DNA of 64,000 bases, from the sequence record ON528735. One strand, written 5' to 3'. Position 1 is the stretch's first letter, and every line of letters starts with the position of its first letter. The notes under the pieces are model-generated. The model searched no databases, was not told where the DNA came from, and saw only the letters and a program-made list of their open reading frames with translations. Of the stretch, positions 1 through 6,001 are shown piece by piece. The DNA is from Shigella phage ESh25. A program made the position numbers and the translations under genes.

Positions 1-136
1 TCATGCGTTTATGTAACTTGAGTATAATATAGCAAACTTCAAAACTATTTACATGAGTAACACGAACAGCATTACCATTAATGAGATAATACTGTCCCTT
101 TTTAATTTCTTTATCAACCACAACCATATCAAATCC
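1..136 (-). CDS. hypothetical early protein, N-terminal part (gene runs off window start)
   Basis: ATG at 136-134 with GAGGA Shine-Dalgarno 5 nt upstream; frame open to position 1; early promoter just upstream. Confidence 0.4.
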
Positions 137-157
137 TCAAAGGCAATTCATATGTTA

Positions 158-187
158 ATAATACCACGGTTTGAACTTGTTGTAAAC
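158..187 (-). promoter_or_regulatory. T4-type early promoter (-35 GTTTAC, -10 TATTAT, 18-nt spacer)
   Basis: GTTTAC at 187-182 and TATTAT at 163-158 on minus strand, A/T-rich upstream tract. Confidence 0.5.
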
Positions 188-285
188 AACTTTGTGAAAA
201 ATATTTTAGGGAATGACAAGAAGGGAACGATAGCTTAGAATGGTAATATACAGAATGCGAGAAAGAAAGGCCCAGAGGGCCCGTC

Positions 286-609
286 TTAATCTTCTATGAT
301 ATCTCTATCATATCCAAGTGAAATGAGAGTTTCTTTGAAGTGTTTAATGTTCTTTTGTCTAGAATCATTAATGAAAATGACAGGATACCGAATATTAAGA
401 GATGTGAATCCGGCGCGTTTGGCAAGAGATACAATCAGTGGACGATCATACTCAATCTTACCATTATTAGTAAGAACTTTATAAAAAGTAAAAGGAGCAT
501 TGAGCTCCTTTAGAAGTTTTGTAACTGATTGACATCCAGGACAACGACCTACTTCATCTGGAATTCCATAGACTTCAATCTTATTCTTTAAGTTCGAGTT
601 TTGTTCCAC
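286..609 (-). CDS. nrdH: glutaredoxin/NrdH-like redoxin (CPGC active site); start codon uncertain, possibly GTG at 609
   Basis: Thioredoxin-fold signature KIEVYG...CPGC; sits downstream of nrdG as in T4; N-terminal extension of the long ORF overlaps the upstream gene in another frame. Confidence 0.5.
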   Translation of the reverse strand: MEQNSNLKNKIEVYGIPDEVGRCPGCQSVTKLLKELNAPFTFYKVLTNNGKIEYDRPLIVSLAKRAGFTSLNIRYPVIFINDSRQKNIKHFKETLISLGYDRDIIED

Positions 610-892
610 GAGAAATAATTCCTTGGTAAGCCCAATAAGGAGGATTAACAGAATCCTCACCAGAGTTTTCTTCAGGAAAATAAACCTGGATAACGAAGCC
701 GGATTCATCAAAGGTAAAATAAACCGTAGGCAGTTCACCTAACAAATCGGCACGAGCGTTGATTTCTTCGAGGTCTTGTTCACGTCCAGTCCAGAAGCTT
801 GGGTTCAGACTACATTCATAGAAATAATAGTCATTACCGAACATATCAAAACCATTCCAACTCTCTACTACATACCGCTCAAAACTAATCAT
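581..892 (-). CDS. hypothetical protein (103 aa)
   Basis: Intact ORF with ATG start between nrdG and the redoxin gene; no recognisable motif. Confidence 0.55.
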   Translation of the reverse strand: MISFERYVVESWNGFDMFGNDYYFYECSLNPSFWTGREQDLEEINARADLLGELPTVYFTFDESGFVIQVYFPEENSGEDSVNPPYWAYQGIISRGTKLELKE

Positions 893-1226
893 AATTAATC
901 CTTTTTATCAAGAACCGCATTCAGCTTGTTAGTAATTTTATCCAGACGCTCATTGAACTCACTAGAAGATAAGCCCTTTTCTGGAGAAATTAAACTAATC
1001 ACGAAAAATATAGCAATAAAAGGAATAAGGAAAATAGCTCTCCAACTGCCATAAACAGAAAGAATGTTACAGTTGTAAGAAAATCAGCTAAACCTTTACG
1101 AAATTTATACATATTTACCCTTAATTAATTAACCAAGCATTGATAAGCACTAAACTATATTGCGAATAAAATTCTGGACCAAAATGAAAAATCATATCAT
1201 TTATAGTATCCATAATGTAATTCAAT

Positions 1227-1697
1227 TTAATCATGTGTCCACACCCCATCGGTATTTGACCAAAGTCGTTGATTATCTGATCCTCGCCACAGCTTTTTGG
1301 TCGGAAGATTTTTCTCATACTTCCCATCAATAATAACATCAACATATTTAAGCATTTCTAGTTGTTTAATATCTTCAAACTTATATCCTGTCCACAACCA
1401 AATGCTTTTATTGGGATAAAGATTTTTAATAGTTTGAACCACAGAGTGAATCACGTCTCTGTTATCAGGATAAAGAGGGTCACCTCCGGTTATAGTTAAT
1501 CCTTCTATATAATCATTATTCAAACATTCAATTAATTGTTCTAATGTTTCACCGGTGAATGGAATACCATTTCTAGCATTCCATGTTGATTTATTATAAC
1601 ACCCTTCGCATTTATGCAAACACCCCGTAACGAAAAGAACTGTCCTGCATCCAGGACCATTAACAAAGCAGCACGGGTATATTCTGTCATAATTCAT
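1227..1697 (-). CDS. nrdG: anaerobic ribonucleotide reductase activating protein (radical SAM)
   Basis: 156 aa, CxxxCxxC (CLHKCEGC) radical-SAM cluster motif; recalled near-identity to T4 NrdG. Confidence 0.95.
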   Translation of the reverse strand: MNYDRIYPCCFVNGPGCRTVLFVTGCLHKCEGCYNKSTWNARNGIPFTGETLEQLIECLNNDYIEGLTITGGDPLYPDNRDVIHSVVQTIKNLYPNKSIWLWTGYKFEDIKQLEMLKYVDVIIDGKYEKNLPTKKLWRGSDNQRLWSNTDGVWTHD

Positions 1698-2526
1698 TTA
1701 TATATTTCCAATTATAGCCTTCAACACTTTTACGTTCGCCATTTAAACATTTTAAAATATTTCCTTTGCTAGAAATATTAAAATATTTTGCTGCGTCTGG
1801 TATATAATTAAATGTTTTTAAAAGAACACCATCTTTATATGCGCCAAATAAATTAAGAGTATATTTTTCTCGAAGACGCTGATGTTTCCTTTTCATAACC
1901 TCAGGATTTGCATACGCCAACTTCAATGAATTTCTGTGTTTTTCTTTTACTTCAGGTTTTTGCATTGCTAACTTAGTTAGCCTGGAAATTTTATTTCTAA
2001 CTTCGTCAGTTTTCATTGCATTTGACAAATTTAATAAAGTTTTATTTCTAACTTCAGGTTTTTGCATTGCTAACTTAGTTAGTTCTCTATGTCTTTTTCT
2101 AAAATCGTCATCCTTCCATATATTTTTCGATAATTTTGACATAGAGCGGTGAAATAATTCCTTTTCACTGGAATACAATTTAAAAATTTCATCCAATTCA
2201 TCCGCATTAAATCTATCGGTATTCGAGTTTATCATTCTATGAAAGGCATAACACATTTTACTATTGCTTGTTTTAGCTAAATAGTAATGAGCTAACGCAT
2301 GGTCATAATATGACAAATTAACAATATTCCATTTATCTGTTTTATATTCAGGAAATATAGATTTGGGAAGCACGTGATGTGCTTCCGTTTTTCCTTTTAT
2401 TTTAGGATTATTATAATTTTTTGTTATCAAATCAACATATGACAATAGTAAATCATTATTTTCTTCAAATATTAAAGCTAATTTATCATTCACAAAATCG
2501 CAAGGATAAAATCTATCATAATTCAT
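1687..2526 (-). CDS. HNH-family homing endonuclease (Mob-like) inserted between nrdD and nrdG
   Basis: 279 aa; HNH-like motif EAHHVLPKS...N...DHALAHYY; repeated basic DNA-binding modules (LTKLAMQKPEV x2); first 13 codons copy the nrdG start. Confidence 0.85.
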   Translation of the reverse strand: MNYDRFYPCDFVNDKLALIFEENNDLLLSYVDLITKNYNNPKIKGKTEAHHVLPKSIFPEYKTDKWNIVNLSYYDHALAHYYLAKTSNSKMCYAFHRMINSNTDRFNADELDEIFKLYSSEKELFHRSMSKLSKNIWKDDDFRKRHRELTKLAMQKPEVRNKTLLNLSNAMKTDEVRNKISRLTKLAMQKPEVKEKHRNSLKLAYANPEVMKRKHQRLREKYTLNLFGAYKDGVLLKTFNYIPDAAKYFNISSKGNILKCLNGERKSVEGYNWKYINEL

Positions 2527-4340
2527 TGGTGTTTAACCCTATGCATGATTTCTTTATTTTTGCCAAGATTAAATCCGCGCTCGTTCGGATTTCCCAAATA
2601 ACCACATGTTCTTCTTATTGTGTTCATCTTTTTAGGATCAGTTTCTCCACAAATAGAACAAACAAATCCGTTTTCAGTAGGAGTCATTTCATGGGTACTT
2701 CCGCATGTAAAACACTTATCTACTGGCATATTAACACCAAAATAATCTAAATGCTGTGCAGCATAATCCCACACGGCCTCAAGACCTTTTAAGTTATTTT
2801 TCATATCAGGAAGTTCAACATAAGAAATGTGACCACCTGTCGCAATGAAATGATATGGCGCTTCACGAGAAATCTTTTCAAACGGAGTAATATTTTCTTC
2901 TACTGAAACATGGAAACTGTTAGTGTACCAGCCTTTATCAGTAACATCTTTTACGCTTCCATATTTTTCTGTATCGAGTTTACAGAAGCGATAACAAAGG
3001 TTTTCAGCAGGAGTCGAATATAAACTAAAAGCAAACCCAGTTCTTTCAGTCCACTGTTTAAGACGAGCATTCATTTTAGTTAAAATTTCTTGTCCAATAT
3101 CACGACCGACAAGAATATTCAATTCATGAATACCAATGTATCCTAAAGACACTGAACTTCTACCGTTTTTAAATAACTCAATTATGTCGTCATCAGGTTT
3201 AAGACGAACCCCGAATGCACCTTCTTGGTAAAGAATAGGAGCAACAGTCGCTTTAACTCCTTTTAAGGAACTAATTCTACACATCAAAGCTTCAAAACAT
3301 AAATCCATTCGTTCATTGAACAATTCGATAAATTTCTGTTCATTGAACTGTGTTCCAATATAAGAATCTAATGCGATACGAGGAAGATTCAGTGTTACAA
3401 CACCGAGATTATTACGTCCATCAAGAATTTCATTGCCAGTCGAATCTTTCCATACGCTCAAGAAACTACGACAACCCATTGGAGAAACAGGAATAGATGA
3501 GCCAGTGATAGCTTTATTGTTCTTAGCTGAAATAATATCAGGATACATTCTTTTGCTTGCGCACTCTAAAGCAAGTTGCTTAATGTCGTAATTCGGATCG
3601 TCTTTATAAAGATTAACGCCTTCTTCAACGAACATAACAAGCTTAGGGAAAATAGGAGTTATCCCATCACGACCAAGACCTTTAATACGATTTTTCAGAA
3701 TTGCTTTCTGAATCATTCGTTCAGTCCAGTCAGTTCCCGTACCAAATGTAATTGTTACAAAAGGCGTTTGTCCGTTTGAACTAAAGAGAGTGTTTACTTC
3801 ATATTCATAAGCTTGGAATGCATCGTATACATCTTTTTCTGTTTTAGATTGAGCATAATTTAACGCATCAGCGATTTGCCATTTTTCTGCATCCTCAATA
3901 TGTTTTGCATAGGTGCGTTTAACATAAGGAGAAAGTACTTTATCTACATTCGCAAAAGTCGTTCCGCCGTATTGGTGAGAAGCAACCTGTGCAGTAATTT
4001 GTGCCATAATTGCAGTAGCAACGCCAATTGATTTAGGAGTTTCAATCTGTGCATTACCAAGCTTAAATCCGTTCTCAAGCATTCCTTTTAAATCTACTAA
4101 ACAACAATTAGTAAATGGAAGAGCAGGGGAATAATCAATATCATGGAAATGAATAATTCCGCTTTCATGCGCTTTCATAATAAAAGACGGGACCATATTT
4201 TTGGCAATGTGTTTAGACACAATACCAGCCATAAGGTCCCGTTGAGTTGGAAAAACACGAGAATCTTTATTAGCATTCTCGTTTAAAAGGTCTTTATTAG
4301 TTTTATGAATCAATCCTTCAATTTCTTTTTCAATTGTCAT
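2523..4340 (-). CDS. nrdD: anaerobic ribonucleoside-triphosphate reductase (glycyl radical enzyme), continuous ORF without intron
   Basis: 605 aa uninterrupted ORF; C-terminal glycyl-radical region and Zn-ribbon cysteines; recalled near-identity to T4 NrdD. Confidence 0.95.
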   Translation of the reverse strand: MTIEKEIEGLIHKTNKDLLNENANKDSRVFPTQRDLMAGIVSKHIAKNMVPSFIMKAHESGIIHFHDIDYSPALPFTNCCLVDLKGMLENGFKLGNAQIETPKSIGVATAIMAQITAQVASHQYGGTTFANVDKVLSPYVKRTYAKHIEDAEKWQIADALNYAQSKTEKDVYDAFQAYEYEVNTLFSSNGQTPFVTITFGTGTDWTERMIQKAILKNRIKGLGRDGITPIFPKLVMFVEEGVNLYKDDPNYDIKQLALECASKRMYPDIISAKNNKAITGSSIPVSPMGCRSFLSVWKDSTGNEILDGRNNLGVVTLNLPRIALDSYIGTQFNEQKFIELFNERMDLCFEALMCRISSLKGVKATVAPILYQEGAFGVRLKPDDDIIELFKNGRSSVSLGYIGIHELNILVGRDIGQEILTKMNARLKQWTERTGFAFSLYSTPAENLCYRFCKLDTEKYGSVKDVTDKGWYTNSFHVSVEENITPFEKISREAPYHFIATGGHISYVELPDMKNNLKGLEAVWDYAAQHLDYFGVNMPVDKCFTCGSTHEMTPTENGFVCSICGETDPKKMNTIRRTCGYLGNPNERGFNLGKNKEIMHRVKHQ

Positions 4341-4810
4341 TTTAAACTCTTTCTAAGCTGCTTCTTAAATGAAGCTATTAATTGTGTTTTAGTGTCAGAT
4401 TCATTATATTCAAATCCTCTTTGAAGCATCTCAGCCATCATTTCCTCTTTTCCTAAACGAGAAAATTCCTTTGATTTATCTCCAACAAAGTTAGGGTGAA
4501 TATTATTTTGGGTGTAATCGGATTTTAAATAAGTAAGTAAATTTTCTAACCATTCAAGATAATCAACACCTTGCCCCTTTAAGCCAGAACGATTAAATTT
4601 ATGTTTCATTTGACCTTCTGCGGCATTGCAGAGATTACAAAGCAATCCACGTACCTTTCCTGCTTTTGGTCCATTTAATTCATGGTCATGGTCGAGGTGA
4701 TTAGCTTGAACATCAGGATTTAGTTCTCGTTGGCAAATTAAGCATTTACCGTTTTGTGCATCATAAAATTTCTGTTTTTCTTCTTTGTATAATTTGCCAG
4801 TCAATAGCAT
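4337..4810 (-). CDS. 49: endonuclease VII (Holliday junction resolvase)
   Basis: 157 aa, Zn-binding CLIC...CNLC and HLDHDHE motifs; recalled identity to T4 gp49. Confidence 0.95.
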   Translation of the reverse strand: MLLTGKLYKEEKQKFYDAQNGKCLICQRELNPDVQANHLDHDHELNGPKAGKVRGLLCNLCNAAEGQMKHKFNRSGLKGQGVDYLEWLENLLTYLKSDYTQNNIHPNFVGDKSKEFSRLGKEEMMAEMLQRGFEYNESDTKTQLIASFKKQLRKSLK

Positions 4811-4851
4811 AATAAACCCTTACCTTAAATAGATAAGGGTATTTATTATTT

Positions 4852-5337
4852 TCAAGTATTGTAAAACATTTGATTCAATCGCTTATATTGCCGAATCTTT
4901 TGGTCAGAAAAAGAAATTTGGGTTTCAAGCCATTCAATATATTCTGCCGCAGCTTGCATCAAATTTCCTTCATAGCCATCGTTATTTTCTTGTGCAGCTA
5001 ATTTAGCTAATGCGTATGAAATACGTTCACCTTGAAAATCAGCTTTAGGCTTCTGAACAACTTGATTAGTTCTATCTACAACTTCTTCAATTTCGCCATT
5101 TTCTACTGATTCAGTATTCCACAAGCACCAATACGTAATTGGCTTATCGTAGATGTTAATAATCTTTCCATCAGAAAGTTCAATTTCAATAATTCCAGTA
5201 TCAGGCTCTATATCATCTTCACATTCTTTTGCAAGTTCACGAACTTTAAAGACAGTACCTGCACTAAGTTCCGGCCAGTAATTACACAGCCCTTTATCAG
5301 CACGATTAATTCTAAACCACTTATCTACTGTAATCAT
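4852..5337 (-). CDS. pin: Pin, inhibitor of host Lon protease
   Basis: 161 aa from internal ATG (MITVDKW...); recalled near-identity to T4 Pin; early promoter upstream. Confidence 0.85.
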   Translation of the reverse strand: MITVDKWFRINRADKGLCNYWPELSAGTVFKVRELAKECEDDIEPDTGIIEIELSDGKIINIYDKPITYWCLWNTESVENGEIEEVVDRTNQVVQKPKADFQGERISYALAKLAAQENNDGYEGNLMQAAAEYIEWLETQISFSDQKIRQYKRLNQMFYNT

Positions 5338-5378
5338 GTCCCATCTCCATATCAATTATGTCATTTATTGTAGGTTCA

Positions 5379-5407
5379 TTATATACTGTTTCTTCATCAG
5401 TGTAAAC
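5379..5407 (-). promoter_or_regulatory. T4-type early promoter (-35 GTTTAC, -10 TATAAT)
   Basis: GTTTAC at 5407-5402, TATAAT at 5384-5379, 17-nt spacer, upstream of pin. Confidence 0.5.
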
Positions 5408-5460
5408 CGGTTCTTCCGGCTCTGGCTCTACTGTTCCCCATCTAGCCGCCCACCAAGGTT

Positions 5461-5781
5461 TTATAGCGTAATCCATTCTCGTATTGTCTGAGTTACTACA
5501 CGTTCACGGGGCTCGACTAGTTCAACAGTCGGAACTGCATAATACCAGTCAGAATGGTAAGAACCTGAGCGAGATTCATTTACAGACACATGTACGTTAT
5601 GTTTTGGACTAAAATAAACGCACTGCCGATATTGGCATTTGCCATCTTGTACCCAATCTTCTATTTCGACAGGTTTAAGATAATCCGAAAAATCGAAATC
5701 ATAATTTTCTGAAAATGCATCATGGTCTTCGATGATTTCGCTCAGAACTGCATCAACATCTAATTTATTTTCAATATTCAT
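5461..5781 (-). CDS. hypothetical protein (106 aa; 49.1 position)
   Basis: Intact ORF in conserved T4 gene order between nrdC and pin. Confidence 0.6.
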   Translation of the reverse strand: MNIENKLDVDAVLSEIIEDHDAFSENYDFDFSDYLKPVEIEDWVQDGKCQYRQCVYFSPKHNVHVSVNESRSGSYHSDWYYAVPTVELVEPRERVVTQTIREWITL

Positions 5782-5791
5782 TTTTCACCAA

Positions 5792-6001
5792 TTAATTTCG
5801 CAATTTATTAAGTTCTTCATCATCAATCCAGGATTCTAGTCCTGATGGCAGGTCACATTCAATTTCCCAAAGAAGTTCTTCAATTTTCTGAAGACGATCT
5901 AATTCTTCGGCTGGAATAGTAACCATTGACGGAGTTCTTGATACACTAATATCGTAAATCATATTTACCCCAGTTTGACCATGCAATCGCCATATTTCCA
6001 T
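5792..6001 (-). CDS. hypothetical protein (69 aa; 49.2 position)
   Basis: Intact ORF in compact early operon. Confidence 0.5.
   Translation of the reverse strand: MEIWRLHGQTGVNMIYDISVSRTPSMVTIPAEELDRLQKIEELLWEIECDLPSGLESWIDDEELNKLRN

Follow-up and report, generated by a model that had tools for sequence, protein, structure and literature searches.

In hundreds of close relatives of Shigella phage ESh25 (RB14, RB51, AR1 and others), nrdD abuts nrdG with an ATGA overlap and no insert. The DNA analyzed here is a stretch of 64,000 nucleotides (nt) from ESh25 (record ON528735; called the window), and in it a 279-residue open reading frame (ORF) stands between the two genes. This ORF and nrdG open with the same 11-mer, ATGAATTATGA, 829 nt apart. 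How did a gene enter a junction that has no intergenic space, and why is the start of nrdG present twice? The answer we favor, with a probability of roughly 0.6, is that the ORF is part of a free-standing homing cassette of the MobC family of HNH endonucleases. The cassette occupies the mobC site of phage T4, sits in frame inside nrdG and carries a replacement 5′ end for that gene.

The shared 11-mer start, the spacing of 829 and the ORF coordinates had been noted in an earlier reading made from the letters alone (the sequence-only reading), and all of them hold on re-examination. The N-termini are MNYDRFYPCDFVN for the endonuclease ORF and MNYDRIYPCCFVN for nrdG. The 11-mer has two sites in the 64-kb window, both in the repeat copies, where 0.17 are expected. 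The 41-mers of the two copies are identical at 31/41 positions, and the next-best match anywhere, on either strand, reaches 24/41. The N-terminal peptides agree at 11/13 residues; the next best among 74 ORF starts agrees at 6/13. A repeat scan returned the same pair (41 nt, 78% identity, spacing 829). These counts exclude chance similarity of two ORF starts, and a direct repeat of the nrdG 5′ end does bound the insert, as the sequence-only reading had it. The parts of the locus on which the argument rests are as follows.

2523–4340, minus strand: nrdD, large subunit of the anaerobic ribonucleotide reductase, 605 residues (aa), no intron.
1687–2526, minus strand: endonuclease ORF, complete, 279 aa, filed as MobC-family HNH (PHROG, hhalign, and the ratio of nonsynonymous to synonymous substitution rates, dN/dS).
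2487–2526, minus strand: upstream repeat copy, resident-type nrdG nt 1–40, serving as endonuclease codons 1–13 (plus 1 nt).
1698–2486, minus strand: endonuclease body, codons 14–277, cassette-specific DNA that is absent in insert-free relatives.
1658–1697, minus strand: downstream repeat copy, the cassette-borne replacement of nrdG nt 1–40 (MNYDRIYPCCFVN allele) and functional nrdG start.
1687–1689, minus strand: endonuclease stop TGA, within nrdG codons 3–4.
1227–1697, minus strand: nrdG, radical-SAM activase, 156 aa (Pfam Fer4_12, E 1.4e-48, and Radical_SAM).

The nrdD stop and the endonuclease ATG share 4 nt (ATGA at 2523–2526). The endonuclease stop TGA is nt 9–11 of nrdG, which gives an overlap of 11 nt between these two genes.

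The window region belongs to Tequatrovirus and is 96–99% identical to Jbel, Paracelsus, UFV-AREG1, Ozark and others by megablast. Most relatives lack the insert and have nrdD abutting nrdG, in agreement with the claim that an HNH-type homing-endonuclease gene was inserted here. What the sequence-only reading missed is that the slot is the long-known site of T4 mobC. In a 2010 review of the mobile elements of T4, mobC is given as a free-standing HNH gene located at nrdG/nrdD, and segH is noted to take its place in some phages. More than 800 records share the junction, and the insert is sporadic among them, in about 24–31. An insert of +829 nt marks the type seen in the window. The other junction inserts are T4 mobC (+622 nt) and the GIY-YIG gene annotated as segH, which is found in T6, RB3, PP01 and others. 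The architecture is unchanged in 7/7 insert-bearing Tequatrovirus genomes examined and in one metagenomic contig. It explains the mis-started nrdG and the inconsistent endonuclease labels that gene callers have given these phages. The Yersinia phage PST record annotates the window-type gene as mobC.

Two alleles at the start of nrdG

The sequence-only reading held that the insertion had duplicated its target, and proposed aligning the junction with insert-free relatives. The alignment confirms the insertion and speaks against a simple duplication: the upstream copy is native and the downstream copy is diverged, so the two are different alleles. The upstream copy is identical at 39/40 positions to nt 1–40 of RB14 nrdG and fully identical to other insert-free Tequatrovirus alleles. 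Its sole difference from RB14 lies at a position that is polymorphic among insert-free phages. The T/G at nt 36 of this copy was considered as a cassette-derived change and was rejected, being a resident polymorphism. All nine insert-free Tequatrovirus junctions first examined start nrdG with MNYDRFYPCDFVNG, and the upstream copies in other insert-bearing genomes have resident-type synonymous polymorphisms.

The downstream copy differs from the native allele at 8–10 positions in the first 39 nt, against about 1% in the rest of nrdG. Between the window and RB14 there are 13 differences in the first 78 nt of nrdG and 5 in the remaining 393 nt. The recoding comprises F6I and D10C plus synonymous changes. 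Codon 10 is altered at all three bases (GAT/GAC to TGC) in Tequatrovirus and also in a second genus, Jiaodavirus.

The second genus tells the two copies apart. In Klebsiella Jiaodaviruses (Roth78 and others), the same place holds an endonuclease homolog that is 86% identical. The insert-free Jiaodaviruses PKO111 and KPN6 start nrdG with ATGAATTTCGACAGAATCTACCCTTCTGACTTTGTGAATGG (MNFDRIYPSDFVNG). In Roth78 the endonuclease ORF begins with 41/41 nt of the native Jiaodavirus nrdG and continues with GAT AAG into the endonuclease body. The downstream nrdG start of Roth78, MNYDRIYPCCFVNG, encodes the same peptide as that of the window with about 7 synonymous differences. The junction falls at the same nucleotide in both genera, after GTN AAT G and before the codons GGN CCN GG (Gly-Pro-Gly, GPG). 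The left copy is thus the resident's and the right copy the cassette's in both, and the mobile unit consists of endonuclease codons 14–279 plus nrdG nt 1 to about 40. This two-genus comparison places the cassette in frame inside nrdG, after nt ~40 (codon 13) and before the GPG codons, and not in an intergenic position. By the same comparison, the downstream copy is the cassette's replacement of nrdG codons 1–13, which restores a complete nrdG.

The copies differ in allele and in phylogenetic affinity, unlike those of a transposon-type target-site duplication. Nor does an insertion of the intron or intein type fit, going by the ORF structure alone (ribozyme and intein motifs were not searched for), in which nrdG stands as a complete ORF of its own.

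In the Jiaodaviruses, with or without the insert, an ORF of 72–77 aa overlaps both the nrdD end and the beginning of the next gene, nrdG or the endonuclease. It lies at 2796–3029 in extracted locus L004 and at about 797–1030 in L006 and L007, and is labelled MazG-like in one record.

Spread, selection and family of the endonuclease

Among the seven Tequatroviruses, divergence is 1.75% in the endonuclease body, 4.0% in nrdD and 4.7% in nrdG. The window and UFV-AREG1 have 0/789 differences in the body and 45/1275 in nrdD. PST and TadeuszReichstein also have 0/789 differences in the body, but their upstream copies differ at nt 36; the left edge of the shared tract therefore lies at most 5 nt from the junction. 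On the right side, the nearest differences are found 30–90 nt into nrdG. The element is thus less diverged than its flanks and is accompanied by a localized co-conversion tract, as is usual for homing genes, and these comparisons show recent spread of the cassette among diverged genomes. Repair of a break at the insertion point would leave just such a sharp left edge: the recipient would keep its own nrdG codons 1–13, and all the DNA from the break to the right-hand homology, spare 5′ end included, would be copied. Between the window and the Jiaodavirus copy, dN/dS is 0.08 at a dS of about 0.9, with similar values in the HNH half and the C-terminal half. Substitution patterns thus show the endonuclease ORF to be under purifying selection.

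The assignment of the protein had to go via T4 MobC, since searches of Pfam, NCBIfam and PDB sequences returned no above-threshold family for it and no Pfam HNH call. In PHROGs the protein matches PHROG 655, homing endonuclease (E 7e-37), and PHROG 12434, HNH endonuclease (E 7e-15). T4 MobC passes the Pfam HNH family PF01844 with 27.6 bits (cutoff 21.4). The profile of the window family aligns onto MobC residues 26–85, which contain this PF01844 match, with an hhalign probability of 98.5% (E 2.5e-15), and BLASTP of the HNH core against MobC gives E 1e-7. In global alignment the two proteins reach z = 11 against shuffles, and the C-terminal halves z = 4.8. The residues H50, H51, N67, H76 and H80 are invariant across a nine-sequence family alignment, as the H-N-H motif (a His-His general base, an Asn and metal-binding His residues) requires. 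On these profile and motif matches we file the 279-residue protein as a divergent MobC-family HNH endonuclease. Three parts of it can be located.

2275–2391, minus strand: H-N-H (beta-beta-alpha-metal) core, residues 46–84.
1939–2082, minus strand: internal 42-nt repeat with 102-nt spacing, putative DNA-binding linker.
1711–1824, minus strand: putative C-terminal DNA-binding module like NUMOD1 / I-HmuI-NUMOD, residues 235–272, ending GYNWKYINEL.

The C-terminus scores 21.1 bits with PF22083 and 17.3 bits with PF07453, both below the curated Pfam cutoffs. The two copies of the 42-nt internal direct repeat are 90% identical and encode repeated helical units (LTKLAMQKPEV..). In a fold search with the full-length model, this helical linker dominated the matches, which were uninformative; a domain-only model gave a weak HNH match.

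The family is tiny; a set of 5.8 billion proteins yields 8 clusters. One of its metagenomic variants, P0002 (L028), has one internal repeat unit deleted and keeps the cassette design; a TA insertion places its endonuclease stop immediately ahead of the nrdG ATG. An nrdG-like N-terminus is missing from the distant family members (T6 mobB-like, P0004–P0008). A T6 homolog that aligns from query residue 4 had raised the N-terminal peptide as a feature of the family as a whole, which was dropped because T6 and the other distant homologs lack such a start. The element itself did not turn up in two IMG/VR scans, one aimed at the recoded nrdG start and the other at protein relatives; they returned insert-free nrdG starts only, and these loci supply extra native alleles.

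Phage VR7 has a homolog (L023 1417–2097) with 55.7% identity over 46% of the query, aligned in two pieces. It lies between genes 49.3 and 49.1, where the order is gene 49, a small hypothetical ORF and then 55.8. As a comparison it was set aside: the locus is a different one, and nrdD and nrdG appear to be absent at that position, so it is uninformative.

How the cassette may move, and the alternatives

In the reading we prefer, coupling to nrdD would drive translation of the endonuclease, and ribosomes leaving the endonuclease would re-initiate at nrdG. The enzyme would cut or nick insert-free nrdG at, or a few nucleotides from, the insertion point. Its target would be native codons ~6–13 together with the conserved GPGCR codons. 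Repair of the break off an insert-bearing co-infecting genome would copy the endonuclease body and the replacement 5′ end. Carriers would be protected by the recoded copy (in particular codon 10, GAT to TGC) and by the physical split of the site. Recombination within the shared ATGAATTATGA would delete the element precisely and leave insert-free MNYDRIYPCC alleles such as that of phage U5. The locus is an example of how a selfish gene gains entry to a junction without intergenic space while neither neighbor is killed, and of how several nuclease families converge on one small piece of a conserved gene. It fixes the insertion point to one nucleotide position in nrdG, with a predicted target at native nrdG nt ~20–56 and a candidate resistant allele. 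The cassette is real and belongs to the MobC-family homing endonucleases at a known site, and it is probably active.

The inverted repeat GTCCTGGATGCAGGAC (1642–1657, minus strand; nrdG codons 14–19, GPGCR) lies directly 3′ of the insertion point. It is a perfect 6-bp repeat, GTCCTG-GATG-CAGGAC, with a 7-bp version in RB14, and the native alleles have it too. It falls within the conserved sequence that is presumed to be part of the target, and may contribute to recognition or fold into a hairpin in the mRNA; its relevance is inferred.

The recoded allele complicates the step of immunity. MNYDRIYPCC occurs in 77 records, and among the 60 listed nearly all have it directly 3′ of an endonuclease gene. 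The nrdG start after segH in T6 is identical in DNA to the downstream copy of the window, and ELT1, which has a T4-type mobC, also carries MNYDRIYPCC. Insert-free U5, ESh24 and ERS-1 (L020–L022) have it directly after the native nrdD end; these three differ in their nrdG background, and the body of ERS-1 is T4-like. Their allele could result from a crossover in the shared ATGAATTATGA with precise loss of the element; just as well it could be ancestral, or a resistant one that was selected. A recoded NrdG start is plausibly tolerated, as residues 1–7 lie outside the PFL-activase homology region and residue 10 aligns to a Gly there.

Several points weigh against the reading we prefer. The MNYDRIYPCC allele is not specific to the window endonuclease, as its company with segH and with the ELT1-type mobC makes plain. 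It may mark immunity to another nuclease, or simply reflect shared ancestry. Phage free-standing endonucleases reportedly can cut carrier and non-carrier genomes alike, which weakens the case for immunity. With the allele accompanying segH and mobC as well, the odds that it confers immunity to the window enzyme in particular are roughly even, going by its distribution. The activity of MobC is given as "not determined" and its target as "unknown" in the 2010 review. No good Shine–Dalgarno sequence precedes the endonuclease or the nrdG start, and both the start and the coupling are read off the sequence.

This last point also bears on expression. There is no other in-frame ATG near the beginning of the endonuclease, and the GTG of codon 12 reads GTT in PST. 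As no other start codon is conserved, the endonuclease should begin at the resident nrdG ATG, with the predicted N-terminal peptide MNYDRFYPCDFVNDK. It takes over the context in which native nrdG is initiated, and with it the ATGA shared with nrdD. Given the poor Shine–Dalgarno sequences and an nrdG start 8 nt upstream of the endonuclease stop, re-initiation at nrdG after the endonuclease is likely, and endonuclease nonsense mutations would then probably be polar on nrdG. The overlaps are compatible with the translational coupling of nrdD, endonuclease and nrdG that the sequence-only reading had suggested, and lend it support. Scans for sigma-70 and late promoters found no notable motif inside the insert. 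The T4 late-promoter motif TATAAATA occurs 20 times in the window against about 10 expected, with none in 1100–4900.

The alternative that survives best, although we consider it unlikely, accepts the architecture and puts the cleavage site elsewhere, either further into nrdG or in nrdD. MNYDRIYPCC would then be hitch-hiking, or be an immunity allele selected by SegH. The allele does accompany three different endonuclease genes, segH most often, and T4 has mobC with a different nrdG start that retains D10. Other T-even free-standing endonucleases, SegG and MobE among them, cut some distance from their own genes (2010 review), and the right-hand shared tract of 30–90 nt into nrdG is in keeping with such a cut. 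However, in Tequatrovirus and Jiaodavirus, two lineages entered independently, resident sequence runs up to a left junction that falls on one and the same nucleotide. Within Tequatrovirus the identical tract ends on its left where a break at the insertion point would put it, and this is not expected of a distant cut with long co-conversion. The MNYDRIYPCC peptide has also stayed with the endonuclease through a dS of ~0.9.

A domesticated or decaying element is an improbable alternative. The ORF would be retained for the translation of nrdG, through polarity or embedded signals, and the nuclease would no longer be active or mobile. The poor ribosome-binding site of nrdG and its overlap with the endonuclease stop are consistent with this, and so are the variant with an internal repeat deletion and the fact that activity has never been shown for MobC. 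The 2010 review notes that embedded expression signals favor keeping such endonuclease genes. Upkeep of the ORF alone, however, would not yield a dN/dS as low as 0.08 throughout the protein, HNH core and DNA-binding end included, nor does it square with invariant catalytic H/N/H residues. The body is also far less diverged than its flanks, which points to recent lateral spread.

That the first ~13 codons of the recipient nrdG were doubled as a simple target-site duplication, and that identical copies then drifted in place, we hold to be very improbable, since the two-genus comparison contradicts it. The direct repeat does flank the insert exactly, and some duplication was needed once, when the cassette first formed. 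But the copies differ at about 9–10/41 positions in an nrdG whose adjacent part is only ~1% from insert-free relatives. The upstream copy tracks each resident lineage, whereas the downstream copy is a trans-genus, cassette-linked allele, identical in DNA to the start that follows segH in T6 and nearly so to that of insert-free U5. Homing by break repair is not known to make target-site duplications. That the junction can duplicate without an endonuclease is seen in phage Sf25 (L018, ~796–1149), where the last ~75 nt of nrdD and the first ~100 nt of nrdG form a 177-nt tandem duplication. It could be a repair scar, a precursor "landing pad" for cassettes or an assembly artefact. The sequence-only reading had named duplicated codons in a relative without the endonuclease as evidence that would count against it. 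Sf25 answers to this loosely, but its duplication is a different one and leaves the finding standing.

The idea that the true endonuclease start is internal and the shared N-terminus a coincidence or annotation artefact, for which only the AT-rich composition of the genome speaks, has a negligible chance: the repeat statistics refute it, there is no alternative conserved start codon, and a second genus repeats the pattern with an nrdG sequence of its own.

A broader proposal can be made tentatively, at clearly less than even odds. MobC-family cassettes may be "gene-start replacement" elements that home at the GPG codons, seize the resident start and carry a spare 5′ end that both repairs and immunizes, with MNYDRIYPCC common to three unrelated nucleases (the window HNH protein, T4-type MobC and the GIY-YIG SegH) and left as a resistant scar after precise loss (U5, ESh24, ERS-1). 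If true, MobC gains a specific predicted cut site, and the cassette is the first phage counterpart, and the first at a 5′ end, of the mORF mechanism of fungal mitochondria. Sandegren et al. 2005 aside, we found no account in the literature of how the nrdG start is captured in frame, nor of the cassette-borne 5′ end or the shared endonuclease-linked allele.

Known systems and neighboring observations

T4 mobC has the same nrdD/nrdG slot and orientation as the window gene, the same overlaps of 4 and 11 nt and the same stop position in nrdG. MobC begins with the nrdG-derived MNYDRIY and ends ..DEL* over the nrdG start, which the sequence-only reading had likewise missed. Its H-N-H core and its GY.WKY..EL C-terminus are homologous to those of the window protein. 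The two proteins are, however, only ~31% identical (65/210 MobC residues, global alignment; 38% over 60 aa locally), and MobC has 210 aa, against 279 aa for the window protein, which carries additional helical repeat units. Beyond codon 7 the nrdG-derived codons upstream have decayed in T4, where the downstream nrdG start is differently recoded and keeps D10. The foreign-looking stretch of nrdG extends to about nt 312 in T4, against ~40–90 nt in the window type. By counts of differences per bin, nt ~40–312 of nrdG are Jiaodavirus-like in T4 (L008) and ELT1 (L019), and the 3′ third is ordinary Tequatrovirus. This stretch looks like a long co-conversion tract beside mobC from a Jiaodavirus-like donor.

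At the same junction segH has the identical MNYDRIYPCC nrdG start 3′ of it, and its stop overlaps the nrdG ATG. It differs in belonging to the GIY-YIG family, in using its own start after an 88-nt spacer with no nrdG-derived N-terminus, and in being accompanied by a recoded nrdD 3′ end. The last ~12 nrdD codons are recoded in T6 (L017 740–800) and ELT1 (L019 740–811) and end in ..NLGKMKEMVKRVKHA*. In ELT1 a remnant of the native nrdD 3′ end (ATGCATAGGGTTAAACACCA) follows the recoded end; the nrdD side of ELT1 is a mirror image, with a replacement end plus a displaced native end.

Conceptually, the closest described mechanism is that of the fungal mitochondrial mORFs (Allomyces macrogynus atp6; Glomus atp6, atp9, cox2 and nad3), in which an endonuclease ORF lies in frame with a foreign C-terminal gene segment (PMC3630166). 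There too, an in-frame insert brings a diverged replacement end, and beyond the insert the native end persists, identical to that of close relatives (PMC3630166). In the fungi the 3′ end is replaced, and the native end stays as an untranslated or pseudogene remnant (PMC3630166); in the window element, by contrast, it is the 5′ end that is exchanged, and the native end now serves the endonuclease as its start. The fungal nucleases are of the LAGLIDADG or GIY-YIG type and reside in organelle genomes (PMC3630166).

Intronless homing by seg and mob genes (SegF and gene 56, SegG and gene 32, MobE and nrdB) resembles the window cassette in several ways. A free-standing gene in a promoter-less cassette lies beside its presumed target, flanking markers are co-converted locally, and carrier genomes have a variant target. 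Those genes are intergenic and cut at a distance, whereas the window cassette splits its target ORF at the presumed cut site, like an intron or intein but without splicing.

Within 1–6000 of the window, the minus strand carries gene 49, nrdD, the 279-aa ORF and nrdG in this order, and beyond nrdG the same run continues with nrdH-like and 55.x genes. The remaining feature of this region is:

4337–4810, minus strand: gene 49, endonuclease VII.

The window nrdD has neither the group I intron nor I-TevII. PST has both in addition to the window-type endonuclease gene; the locus thus has two mobile elements that assort independently of each other. In TadeuszReichstein a second, GIY-YIG-like endonuclease gene (L026 464–1285) lies between gene 49 and nrdD, with small overlaps on both sides. 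The first ~20 codons of its nrdD (L026 1276–1365) are heavily recoded, with MSLEKDVLNFISNKDKELN.. in place of the native MTIEKEIEGLIHKTNKDLLN...

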